A DNA stretch of 12,347 nucleotides from a virus. Numbering within the stretch: the stretch's first letter is position 1; each line of letters starts with the position of its first letter. The translations under genes were made by a program, and so were the position numbers. Below are positions 6,139 through 8,984 of the stretch, in pieces. Under the pieces are notes generated by a model. That model saw nothing but the letters and a program-made list of their open reading frames with translations. It was not told where the DNA came from and did no database searches. The stretch lies in UHGV virus genome UHGV-0179105. One strand, 5' to 3'.

Positions 6139-6471
6139 TTACTTTTTTACAGCATTCGATAAATGTTCATACAGGGAATTAAGCTCCTCGGCCATTTTAT
6201 CCGCGTCACGAAGCAAGGTGCGGATACCCGGTGCCTCACGCATATCGACGCAGAAGAGAGCGTGTTCTTCGGGGTCGAAATCCTCAGCGTATTCATACAG
6301 GCTATGTAAAATTTCATCATCGTTGCTGCCATAAAGATAGACAAGGAAATCCTCACCGGCGGGAGACCATGTTTCAAGTTCAAGACCAATGGGATTTGTA
6401 TCGTTATCAAAATCGACACTATAAAGCCAACCTTTTTCTTGGATGGTATTAAGTAGAGTATTAGAAAACAT
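6139..6471 (-). CDS. hypothetical acidic protein, 110 aa
   Basis: Track ORF 6139..6513; preferred start ATG 6471 (MFSNTLLNTIQ...) with AAAGGAG 6 nt upstream; strongly D/E-rich. Confidence 0.6.
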   Translation of the reverse strand: MFSNTLLNTIQEKGWLYSVDFDNDTNPIGLELETWSPAGEDFLVYLYGSNDDEILHSLYEYAEDFDPEEHALFCVDMREAPGIRTLLRDADKMAEELNSLYEHLSNAVKK

Positions 6472-6689
6472 TATGCGCTCCTTTGTTGGTTGAAAATGAA
6501 TTCTTCTGTACATTGGACGCCGAGGATATTCAGCATGAGGAAGATAGTATCAAGGACTCCCTTGCAGTATCCTGCATCAAATTGTGTGGACATATTGCGG
6601 AAGCTGGCATCGTAGTAATCCATCATATGAAGAGCGGCGGATTTGACTTTACTGTCGAATTGCTTTTTGCTGTAGCGTTGATTTTTCAT
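6471..6689 (-). CDS. hypothetical protein, 72 aa
   Basis: Track ORF 6471..6689; start ATG 6689 overlaps the upstream stop as ATGA (translational coupling); its stop overlaps the next start as TAATG. Confidence 0.5.
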   Translation of the reverse strand: MKNQRYSKKQFDSKVKSAALHMMDYYDASFRNMSTQFDAGYCKGVLDTIFLMLNILGVQCTEEFIFNQQRSA

Positions 6690-6985
6690 ACTTCTGAAGT
6701 CGGAATTACTTCCCCGATTTTGTACTCTTCGCTGGCAGCGAGTGCATCACTGCCTGGATAATAGACATCAACTTCAAAATATGTTTCACGGTATGCTGTG
6801 TTACTTGTGCCAGACAGAATCTCGATTCCGTAGTTGTCGGACTCGTAACTGGTTCTGAATTTATCACGCTGTTCCGTTGCATAATCTGTGGCCGCTTTCT
6901 CCGATGTAAAAAATTTTACATCAGCATAATCATCGCACACGTCACCCCAGTGATGGGTAGTGACATACCAGGGATTATTATTCAT
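6686..6985 (-). CDS. hypothetical protein, about 99 aa
   Basis: Track ORF 6686..6991; ATG 6991 is only 3 nt from GAGGAG, whereas in-frame ATG 6985 has a 9-nt spacer, so 6985 is preferred. Confidence 0.55.
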   Translation of the reverse strand: MNNNPWYVTTHHWGDVCDDYADVKFFTSEKAATDYATEQRDKFRTSYESDNYGIEILSGTSNTAYRETYFEVDVYYPGSDALAASEEYKIGEVIPTSEV

Positions 6986-6991
6986 AGTCAT

Positions 6992-7246
6992 TTACTCCTC
7001 GATAAAGTGGATGTGCCACCAGTCGTAGTAACAATATTCGTTACCAATCGGCGTAAGATAAAAGTCGCTTTCATCCTCACTTGCGAAAGTTTCTCTGTGT
7101 TGATCATAAAGCTGCGTTTCTTTTTCATCGTTTACCATTTTCCTTACAGCAAGTTCTGCCTGTTTGTAACTTCCAAAGCAACGAGTTTCTACGACTTTGG
7201 GATTATAACCCTCTTCAAGGTAGGTATGTACGACAAAGAATTTCAT
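6992..7246 (-). CDS. hypothetical protein, 84 aa
   Basis: Track ORF 6992..7246; GGGAGGG 9 nt upstream of ATG 7246; ATGA overlap with the upstream gene's stop. Confidence 0.6.
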   Translation of the reverse strand: MKFFVVHTYLEEGYNPKVVETRCFGSYKQAELAVRKMVNDEKETQLYDQHRETFASEDESDFYLTPIGNEYCYYDWWHIHFIEE

Positions 7247-7917
7247 GCGATTCGTCCCTCCCAGCTGTTCGGCTGACCTTCGAGGATTTCGATGTCATAG
7301 GCGATCTGTTCGATGACGCTGTCGAGGATGATGCTCTGGCCGGTGCCTTGGCGACCCCAATAGCGCTTGCCGTAGGTATCGATCACGACCTCGCCGTATT
7401 GGCTGAGTTTTTTGCCGAGCCAGTCGGAGACGGCATACCACTCATAGATTGTCGGGACATCGCTCTCCAAATAATCGAAATCATACTCGCCGAAGACTTT
7501 GCCGCAGTTTTTACAGCGCCGGGCGTCATCATACTGGCAGCATTCGCGGGCTTCCTGCAGCGTTTCGTGTTCCTCGCCGCAGATGGGACAAGTATATACC
7601 GGCTCGTCAGAATTCCAATCCTCACCGTGGAAATCGGTTTCATCCGCTTCCATCGGGTCATAATACTCGAAATTGCCAGCCTCACCGCAACTATCGCAAT
7701 CTTTCTCGGTGCCATTGTTAATGGCGTCGTCGTAATCCTCGACAGTAAAAGGGGCGTCTTCATCGTAGCCGATAACCAGAATCGTTTTGATGATGAATTC
7801 GATTTCCTGTGTCATATCACAGTAAACCTCGTTATCAACAAGCTTACTCAGGATACGGTTGTTGGCAGGGGACATCAGGCTGTATTCTTTGCCGTTCACT
7901 TTATAATCGCAGCTCAT
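7243..7917 (-). CDS. acidic multi-CxxC (zinc-ribbon-like) protein, 224 aa
   Basis: Track ORF 7243..7917; ATGA overlap with the upstream gene; motifs CDSCGE, CPICGEEH...ECC and CKNCGK separated by D/E-rich linkers; C-terminal block TYGKRYWGRQGTGQSIILDSVIEQIA. Confidence 0.65.
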   Translation of the reverse strand: MSCDYKVNGKEYSLMSPANNRILSKLVDNEVYCDMTQEIEFIIKTILVIGYDEDAPFTVEDYDDAINNGTEKDCDSCGEAGNFEYYDPMEADETDFHGEDWNSDEPVYTCPICGEEHETLQEARECCQYDDARRCKNCGKVFGEYDFDYLESDVPTIYEWYAVSDWLGKKLSQYGEVVIDTYGKRYWGRQGTGQSIILDSVIEQIAYDIEILEGQPNSWEGRIA

Positions 7918-8561
7918 AAGTATTGTTCGGCCTCACTTTCGTCGATGATGCGATAGTTATTGCCGAAATAGAACGAGAGCATTTCATCTTCCTCATCGGA
8001 GTAGAAGCCGCCGCAGGTATCCTCCAGTGTCCACTCTTTGGTGACTTTATCGTATGGGTAGATGGAGTAGATATAAGCCTCGCCTGTGAGGAACTTGTCA
8101 TAGGTTTCAATTTCGCTTTCGATGATATCCTCGGCGTGCTGCTGCCAGTCGGTATCATTGCCAAAAGCCTCAATGACCTGTTCTTTGGTGCAGATGGCGA
8201 CACCGAAACAGCCGCTATCCCAAGGGTCGTTGAAAGAGCCGGTGCTGATCGTAATGCCGCTGTGAACGTAAGCGTAGAGCGGCACGGAAACAAATTCAGC
8301 TCTGCGGTCTTTAAGTCCGGCAAGGTAATCATCGAGATTGTCACTGTTGGTGAAATCCATATCGTTGTCATACTTGGAGCTGCCGAGGTAGCGATTGCGG
8401 ACATAGCAGATGGTGCAGTAGTTGCAATCATTCTCGCGGGGATTGAGAGGGTCATTATCTCGCTCGGCGGTCACGAAATAAAGCTCTTTGCCGTCTGTGA
8501 CATAAATGCCATCGAGGTCAGTTTCAACGATACGGGTTTCTTTCAATGTCAATGTAGACAT
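7914..8561 (-). CDS. hypothetical acidic protein, 215 aa
   Basis: Track ORF 7914..8561; AAGGAGGTG 6 nt upstream of ATG 8561; motif blocks LYAYVHSGITISTGSFNDPWDSGCFGVAICT; strongly D/E-rich. Confidence 0.7.
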   Translation of the reverse strand: MSTLTLKETRIVETDLDGIYVTDGKELYFVTAERDNDPLNPRENDCNYCTICYVRNRYLGSSKYDNDMDFTNSDNLDDYLAGLKDRRAEFVSVPLYAYVHSGITISTGSFNDPWDSGCFGVAICTKEQVIEAFGNDTDWQQHAEDIIESEIETYDKFLTGEAYIYSIYPYDKVTKEWTLEDTCGGFYSDEEDEMLSFYFGNNYRIIDESEAEQYL

Positions 8562-8564
8562 AGG

Positions 8565-8984
8565 TCACACCTCCTTGTCAGCGTAGTGGTTTTCGATAGC
8601 GGTATCGATCTGGTCATACTCGGGAATATCAGCGTTATAGTGATCGAGGAAATCGTTTGTGATGGCGTCGATGGTTCCATCCTGAGCAGCCGTTTTCAGC
8701 TTTTTCTCAACCTCTTCATCTTTCAGACAGAGTTCATAGGAATAGAAGCTAACGAGATGTTCCTTGACATCCTCGGCCCGGAGTTGTTCCTGAATGGCGT
8801 TATAGACCATAAGACCGATACTGGAATCATCCAGGATGGCATCGATCGCAGCCTTAGCACCGTAGAGCCAGCCGCAGCAGAAGGTCGTGTAGTCGGTGGC
8901 CTGAATCGCTGGTGTGTCTGCTTCCTGCTTGATTTCGTTATACTGCGGCAGATATTTTAAAATCGTTTCCGTTTTGGTTTTCAT
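8565..8984 (-). CDS. hypothetical acidic protein, 139 aa
   Basis: Track ORF 8565..8984; ATGA overlap with the stop of the 434-aa gene; GGAGA 7 nt upstream. Confidence 0.65.
   Translation of the reverse strand: MKTKTETILKYLPQYNEIKQEADTPAIQATDYTTFCCGWLYGAKAAIDAILDDSSIGLMVYNAIQEQLRAEDVKEHLVSFYSYELCLKDEEVEKKLKTAAQDGTIDAITNDFLDHYNADIPEYDQIDTAIENHYADKEV

Follow-up and report, generated by a model that had tools for sequence, protein, structure and literature searches.

Four acidic proteins of a human-gut phage accessory-gene block and the case for a large, unnamed mobile-element family in place of DNA mimicry

We analysed a stretch of 12,347 nucleotides (nt) from the virus genome UHGV-0179105, hereafter the window, in which four genes between positions 6,139 and 8,984 encode strongly acidic proteins of 110, 224, 215 and 139 amino acids (aa). 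A first-pass annotation had read this run as candidate DNA mimics or anti-restriction factors by analogy with Ocr and ArdA, an interpretation that our results support in part. The best explanation that we can offer is that the region would belong to a long block in which small accessory genes follow one another on a single strand with translational coupling, carried by a human-gut tailed phage of approximately 145 kb, and that the negative charge of the four unrelated proteins would reflect the general composition of this block and not a common mechanism. Within it, the 215-aa protein would represent a family that serves establishment or counter-defence in the newly entered cell, as soon as the DNA is in, using a conserved polar pocket. 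We give this explanation as a whole a probability of about 45%.

All four open reading frames (ORFs) of the first-pass annotation are present on the minus strand (Table 1), and their products are indeed rich in aspartate and glutamate (20-22%) with few lysines and arginines (6-9%). Isoelectric points (pI) were calculated with a custom routine (the Biopython pI routine floors at 4.05) and charges were taken at pH 7. Results showed pI values of 4.04-4.31 and a net charge per residue of -0.115 to -0.154, bearing out the marked acidity that had been predicted, but the median pI over the window ORFs is 4.79 and 18 of the 30 lie below 5. Comparable acidity is found outside the four genes in ORFs 2282..2590, 551..970 and 6686..6991 (pI 4.12-4.23) and, to a lesser extent, in ORF 2523..3152 (pI 4.43), while in a 20.6-kb stretch of a 97%-identical relative 40% of 47 genes have a pI below 4.5. 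Acidity is a background of the whole block and is not distinctive of the four-gene run; because it is the background state, it is a weak pointer to DNA mimicry. The same calculation on Ocr from the T7 record gives 29% aspartate plus glutamate (0.291), a net charge of -0.239 per residue and a pI of 3.87, thus about twice the charge density of the four window proteins, none of which reaches the extreme charge of Ocr.

We also looked for similarity to known anti-restriction proteins. At E<=0.1, the four proteins matched nothing in Pfam (including the ArdA and Ocr models), NCBIfam or PADLOC, apart from zinc-ribbon noise in the 224-aa protein and one chance-level NCBIfam match of the 139-aa protein. 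No ArdA (PF07275) profile match or match to an ArdA structure sequence was found, BLASTP of T7 Ocr against all window proteins gave E values of at least 16, and hhalign against Ocr returned probabilities of 0.2% and 0.1% for queries A1 and A2. Searches of the PDB with phmmer and hmmsearch, using single sequences and profiles, recovered no Ocr match and nothing meaningful for the four proteins; a match to SAKe6AR (E=2e-4), a designed repeat protein, spanned just 27 residues and was discarded. Structures were predicted for the 215-aa and 224-aa proteins, and the fold search gave no PDB fold relative for either of them. Moreover, an all-against-all BLASTP of the four proteins revealed no paralogy, and to judge from these comparisons they are four unrelated families. 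DNA mimicry, for which acidity had been the only argument, is unsupported for the four proteins.

The 215-aa protein matches phrog_6186 (E=6.3e-12), a PHROG annotated as 'unknown function', and its alignments place it, as a divergent member, in an unnamed mobile-element family of very large size. In a census in which a profile of 29 members was searched against representatives of 50%-identity clusters, we recovered 12,634 cluster representatives at E<=1e-3 and 4,785 at E<=1e-30. The family has no Pfam or NCBIfam model. Pfam searches with 29 diverse and 10 longer members found no match, no informative domain fusion was found among the longer members, Foldseek against BFVD returned uncharacterised phage proteins only, and a literature search for the identifiers phrog_6186 and phrog_26364 (the PHROG matched by the 224-aa protein) gave no papers. 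Members are found in phages of Erythrobacter, Bacillus, Sphingobium, Moorella and Ruegeria, in archaeal viruses of Nitrosopumilaceae and Methanomicrobiales and, by fold, in phages of Mycobacterium, Gordonia, Microbacterium and Lactobacillus. They are also carried by 47 plasmids, 36 of which are mobilizable or conjugative, and by 36 genome loci from Clostridia, Bacteroidota, Proteobacteria, Acidobacteria, Omnitrophota, a candidate phyla radiation (CPR) bacterium and Methanobacterium.

The motif blocks LYAYVHSG and FNDPWDSGCFG, which the first-pass annotation had pointed out in the 215-aa protein, are located at residues 95-102 and 110-120, and the core motifs of the family are YxYDHSGITxxT..F....WDSGQxG, PRExDN...CxxHxRYLGD, ExxxYDxYLxG and DSCxG. 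In an alignment of 225 sequences, about 47 positions are at least 80% conserved, about half of them polar, and the invariant motifs are rich in Asp, His, Ser, Cys, Tyr and Trp. The consensus comprises D35, P41-R42-E-x-D45-x-N47, C52, H55, R57-Y-L-G-D61, L-P-L-Y-x-Y-D99-H100-S-G-I-T, T107, F110, W114-D115-S-G-Q-x-G120, E150-V-x-x-Y154-D155-x-Y-L-x-G160 and D181-S-C183-x-G185. This pattern looks like a catalytic or specific ligand-binding site and unlike a charge-mimic surface. Among the 45 acidic residues of the window protein, 10 fall in alignment columns with an acidic residue in at least 70% of sequences and 26 in columns where this share is below 40%, and 148 family representatives have a median pI of 4.72 (maximum 8.0) and a median net charge of -0.075 per residue. 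The conserved negative charge expected of DNA mimics is thus not a property of the family, for which the conservation pattern contradicts mimicry. The extra acidic residues of the window protein cluster in a length-variable insert (62-89) and in the C-terminal tail (187-215), two stretches that were also modelled with lower confidence.

Gene neighbourhoods of the family revealed recurrent partners; in the gene orders that follow, X stands for the 215-aa family member. On IncP-7/MOBH plasmids (pDK1 and a Stutzerimonas plasmid) the order is ssb - recT - X - three to four small genes - yqaJ-type exonuclease - relaxase (mobH) - traD, and on Roseobacter plasmids it is 723-aa ParB-like protein - DUF3768 - DUF6878 - DUF6915 - X - (ParDE) - 1,465-aa strawberry-notch-like helicase - toprim. 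Five Clostridia loci carry, on one strand, a methylase-helicase giant, X, a DUF3991/Toprim primase and a MobL relaxase, the giants being proteins of 2,200-2,445 aa that combine DUF3846, an Eco57I-type N6-adenine methylase and an SNF2/ResIII helicase. The giant is immediately upstream of X in loci L062 and L068, two opposite-strand ORFs lie between giant and X in L058, and in two of the five loci the gaps on both sides of X are just 3-46 nt. The order giant - X - primase - relaxase forms a conserved module of conjugative elements. Three other Clostridia loci show a TraG/VirB4-like ATPase, an ArdC-N-like protein, an NrS-1-type primase-polymerase domain protein and X, accompanied by DUF7768; two of these three loci also have a C5 cytosine methylase, and in two a methylase-helicase giant follows a few genes further along. 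Upstream of X in three Proteobacteria loci, at a distance of about 0.4-1.2 kb, lies the gene of a complete ArdC (ArdcN plus zincin-like peptidase). In phage-like metagenome contigs, X is found among long arrays of small unannotated genes in which DUF932, GP88, ParB_N and HNH recur. DUF932 (PF06067) proteins were seen within a few kb of X in four independent phage-like loci (L015, L017, L018/L019 and L042), and GP88 was also seen near the family member of L017, a 164-kb metagenome contig.

Anti-defence genes, orphan methylases and genes for single-stranded DNA-binding proteins (SSBs) are documented to be concentrated in plasmid leading regions (PMC11541004), and giant methylase-helicase polyvalent proteins of conjugative elements and phages have been predicted to be delivered counter-defence effectors (PMC5512222). 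Among the four window proteins, a leading-region or early-entry location, as read from neighbouring relaxase, ssb, orphan methylase and anti-restriction genes, was found for the 215-aa family only, and by gene context an entry-stage or counter-defence role is plausible for this family only. The first-pass annotation had also argued that the genomic context is one where anti-restriction genes occur. This half of the argument holds for the 215-aa family because of the neighbourhoods of its relatives and not because of the contents of the window; it does not hold for the other three proteins, nor for the window itself.

The explanation that we favour for the 215-aa family starts from what was observed directly, namely its membership, size, conservation pattern and gene neighbourhoods and its lack of a known fold. 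The proposed pocket would be formed by His100, Asp115, Ser116, Glu150, Tyr154 and Asp155, joined in most members by His55, Asp61 and Asp99, and it would act enzymatically or by specific binding of a ligand or protein, with no imitation of DNA. The 139-aa, 110-aa and 224-aa proteins would most likely be host-interaction proteins that work by protein-protein binding. A bolder version, in which the 215-aa family would counter defence or restriction at the entry stage and form a class of its own, with a novel fold, an enzyme-like Asp/His/Ser site and a mechanism unlike those of DNA mimics, ArdB and ArdC, seems doubtful to us and is put forward tentatively.

Several observations weigh against an entry-stage counter-defence role, in general or for the window's copy in particular. 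Neighbourhoods cannot separate counter-defence from complementary-strand synthesis, recombination or SOS control, and every database name in the family is 'hypothetical protein'. In the window, the 215-aa gene adjoins the region of a Bro-N/Ant-like gene and not methylases or ArdC, and a promoter scan found 12 sites where 8.0 +/- 3.2 were expected, which is not above chance and leaves early expression unsupported. Moreover, the window clade departs from the family at near-invariant positions (94-98% conserved), with H55->R, D61->S and D99->V, and it also has Gln118->Cys. Since three near-invariant residues are replaced, the window's copy may be functionally derived, perhaps without the ancestral activity of the family; the 68%-identical relative P0055 retains the Asp of YDHSG, and the comparison suggests a recent loss or change of the ancestral site in this clade. 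As for the 139-aa and 110-aa proteins, both known as sequences only, acidity is the sole pointer to mimicry and a mimic-like fold would be possible.

The neighbourhoods of the 215-aa family could also be those of a protein that assists DNA metabolism while mobile DNA enters or replicates, either a partner of a primase, helicase or recombinase or a PsiB-/Gam-like modulator of RecA or of end-processing nucleases. Consistent with such a role, X lies between recT and yqaJ on IncP-7 plasmids and between the SNF2 helicase giant and the Toprim primase in Clostridia elements, it adjoins toprim proteins on Roseobacter plasmids and the NrS-1-like primase-polymerase domain protein, and universal targets such as RecA/RadA would suit a family present in both bacteria and archaea. 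We nevertheless regard it as rather unlikely, considering that the family is acidic and without a recognisable DNA-binding or nuclease fold, and that its phage members are embedded in arrays of small accessory genes and not in replication modules. Alternatively, the four proteins may have no common or notable function and be ordinary fast-evolving phage accessory proteins with compositional acidity and unrelated roles, for example zinc-ribbon regulation. Their mutual unrelatedness, the acidic background, the lineage-restricted orphan status of two of them and the small, phage-only family of the 224-aa protein would all agree with this; the great size, wide spread and strong conservation of the 215-aa family, however, are at odds with a role that is neutral or idiosyncratic, and we judge the alternative improbable.

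There remains mimicry proper, in which at least one of the four proteins would carry a DNA-like carboxylate array competitively blocking type I restriction-modification or other DNA-binding defence proteins. Beyond the low pI and a net charge of -16 to -33, it could appeal to the acidic pI retained in close and many distant homologues, to the anti-restriction contexts of the 215-aa family, to the small size of the 139-aa and 110-aa proteins and to non-conserved acidic loops and tails (residues 62-89 and 187-215 of the 215-aa protein, residues 50-120 of the 224-aa protein) that could be flexible mimics. Against this stand a charge density about half that of Ocr, an acidity shared with the whole block, sequence and profile searches that linked the four to neither Ocr nor ArdA nor any PDB chain, the lack of a fold match for the two modelled proteins, the poorly conserved acidic positions of the 215-aa family with representatives up to pI 8.0, and the zinc-ribbon basis of the 224-aa protein. 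Altogether, we consider mimicry very unlikely and keep the accessory-block explanation, with the 215-aa family acting at entry, as the preferred one.

The 224-aa protein matches phrog_26364 (E=1.5e-17), also annotated as 'unknown function', and belongs to a small family: the search recovered just 20 homologous clusters, almost all of them closely related, together with a distant full-length relative in Pseudoalteromonas phage PH357, and a plasmid search for homologues gave no match, indicating a phage-only distribution. Its N-terminal alpha/beta domain is well predicted in the model, whereas the middle is a very acidic, low-confidence linker (net -6 to -8 per 20 residues) that contains the CxxC pairs C74/77, C110/113 and C135/138 plus C126/127. 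The protein is predicted to be a phage-only multi-zinc-ribbon protein of the Cys4 type, and a zinc-dependent protein-binding or regulatory role is our default guess. Lar (PF14354 / TIGR03655) was considered and rejected, the scores being 14.9 against a cut-off of 28.6 bits and 17.6 against 39.6 bits; weak matches occur in 4 of 21 family members, beside equally weak matches to many generic zinc-ribbon families. The C-terminal part is a conserved, beta-rich module (EWYAVSDWLG..GE.VI..YWGR..GQSI..D.VI), and residues 146-215 match hypothetical proteins of Vibrio, Rhizobium and Clostridium phages with 41-49% identity over 50-66 residues. From its sequence distribution this module of about 60 residues appears to be a separate mobile domain. 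Acidity is retained in the 224-aa family, the relatives compared being close ones. The 224-aa and 215-aa genes co-occur within this phage clade only, in which P0053 and P0081, like P0044 and P0082, come from contigs of equal length and so probably from the same contigs, and no 215-aa family match was found in PH357.

The two remaining acidic proteins are lineage-restricted orphans. The 139-aa protein has no match in Pfam, PHROG, PADLOC or the PDB beyond the chance-level NCBIfam match, and no tblastn match in 50,697 phage records; its relatives, at 88-91% identity, are found only in IMG/VR gut viral contigs, 8 of 10 of which are 139-150 kb or 233 kb long, and in the close relatives its gene is always directly upstream of the 215-aa gene. 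The 110-aa protein has no family match (Pfam, PHROG, NCBIfam) and no PDB match, and gave one match of 32% identity in a human faecal phage contig. Its relatives at 91-96% identity are carried by gut viral contigs of 80-150 kb, four of the six being 146-150 kb.

The window contains 30 plausible ORFs, all on the minus strand. From 10285 to 6139, they form a tightly coupled chain with overlaps of 1-4 nt and gaps of 0-3 nt, which opens with a 434-aa protein matching Pfam Bro-N (E=2.9e-07) and the PHROG anti-repressor Ant (E=8.8e-15), the stop of its gene overlapping the start of the 139-aa gene by 4 nt (Table 1). Apart from Bro-N/Ant and two PHROGs of unknown function, scans of ten ORFs against Pfam, NCBIfam, PADLOC and PHROGs returned nothing but generic zinc-ribbon noise; the 84-aa and 101-aa ORFs of the chain gave no family match in Pfam, PHROG or NCBIfam. 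The start of the 110-aa ORF at 6471 is preceded by a good ribosome-binding site of the Shine-Dalgarno type (AAAGGAGCGCATA-ATG), and because a longer start at 6513 has none, 110 aa is the better call.

Table 1. Genes of the coupled chain in the window and methylase-helicase giants in Clostridia genome loci (positions of the giants are those of each locus)
Feature	Position	Strand	Remarks
434-aa Bro-N / Ant-like protein	8981..10285	-	first gene of the coupled chain; basic, pI 8.8
139-aa acidic orphan protein	8565..8984	-	pI 4.31, charge -16
215-aa acidic protein	7914..8561	-	pI 4.06, charge -29; 3-nt gap after the 139-aa gene
224-aa acidic protein	7243..7917	-	pI 4.04, charge -33; 4-nt overlap with the 215-aa gene
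84-aa acidic ORF	6992..7246	-	pI 4.71; same coupled chain; absent from the first-pass list
101-aa acidic ORF	6686..6991	-	pI 4.23; same coupled chain; absent from the first-pass list
72-aa basic ORF	6471..6689	-	pI 8.7; breaks up the acidic run
110-aa acidic orphan protein	6139..6471	-	pI 4.13, charge -17; 1-nt overlap with the upstream stop
Methylase-helicase giant, locus L068	367..7704		Clostridia genome locus
Methylase-helicase giant, locus L062	365..7702		Clostridia genome locus
Methylase-helicase giant, locus L058	14..6616		Clostridia genome locus

Megablast of the whole window against isolate phages gave no DNA-level match. Close relatives of the 139-aa and 110-aa genes are found mid-genome in IMG/VR viral contigs, mostly of 139-150 kb (range 64-233 kb), and exact or near-exact copies of the 215-aa gene product are encoded on human-gut metagenome contigs of up to approximately 260 kb. 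On the basis of the IMG/VR contigs and the PHROG matches, the window is most readily assigned to an accessory-gene block of a large (approximately 145-kb) human-gut tailed phage. A terminator scan of the window was not clearly above chance, and neither tRNA genes nor Rfam family matches were found in it. Its G+C content (GC) is about 0.35-0.45 at 4-7 kb and higher, at 0.51-0.57, around 9-11 kb, a part that lies within the Bro-N gene and extends past it. The same co-directional block also encodes a GP88-family protein (PF17338, E=6e-16) at 1513..2172 (-) and a DUF5052 lipoprotein (E=3.5e-65) at 2523..3152 (-), the latter with homologues of about 29% identity in Lactobacillus plantarum phages, which are the nearest isolate relatives for both proteins.

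Another small gene of the window, a 96-aa acidic ORF at 10315..10605 (-), has no Pfam or NCBIfam match. Full-length homologues, about 50% identical to it, are carried by 182 plasmids of Vibrio, Pseudomonas, Shewanella, Paenibacillus and other hosts, among them 79 conjugative and 36 mobilizable plasmids. Many of these homologues are labelled 'type I restriction endonuclease subunit M' though they are about 88 aa long, likely a mis-annotation. To judge from these homologues, this ORF represents a second small family common to the phage block and to plasmids.

As a claim of DNA mimicry, the acidic run has little import: in this phage, being highly acidic does not by itself set a protein apart, and mimicry failed every test that was run. 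Its by-product is that a very large protein family, with neither a Pfam or NCBIfam model nor a solved fold, has been flagged. The 215-aa family spans phyla: in plasmids and integrative conjugative elements (ICEs) its genes have ArdC, orphan methylases, methylase-helicase giants, primases or ssb-recT as neighbours, and in large phages they lie in accessory blocks. Families so distributed are among the first in which to expect new functions in anti-defence or establishment, and one that is common to tailed phages, archaeal viruses, conjugative plasmids and ICEs deserves experimental attention.

Compared with known systems, the window proteins share with Ocr and ArdA that they are small-to-medium acidic proteins of mobile elements, and the genomic setting of the 215-aa family, in plasmid leading regions and phage accessory blocks, is also home to ArdA/Ocr-type genes. 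They differ from them in sequence, in profile and, for the two that were modelled, in fold, as well as in charge density, and they have conserved polar motifs or zinc ribbons instead of a conserved charge pattern. The likeness of the 224-aa protein to Lar is a weak match of residues 108-149 to the Lar zinc-ribbon model and amounts to a generic CxxC...CxxC resemblance. ArdC and the other leading-region genes (orphan methylases, SSB, PsiB and the polyvalent giants) come closest in setting: none of these partners is present in the window and the 215-aa family has no homology to any of them, but in plasmids and ICEs it stands in operon-like neighbourhoods with them and, like them, it is found in both phages and plasmids.

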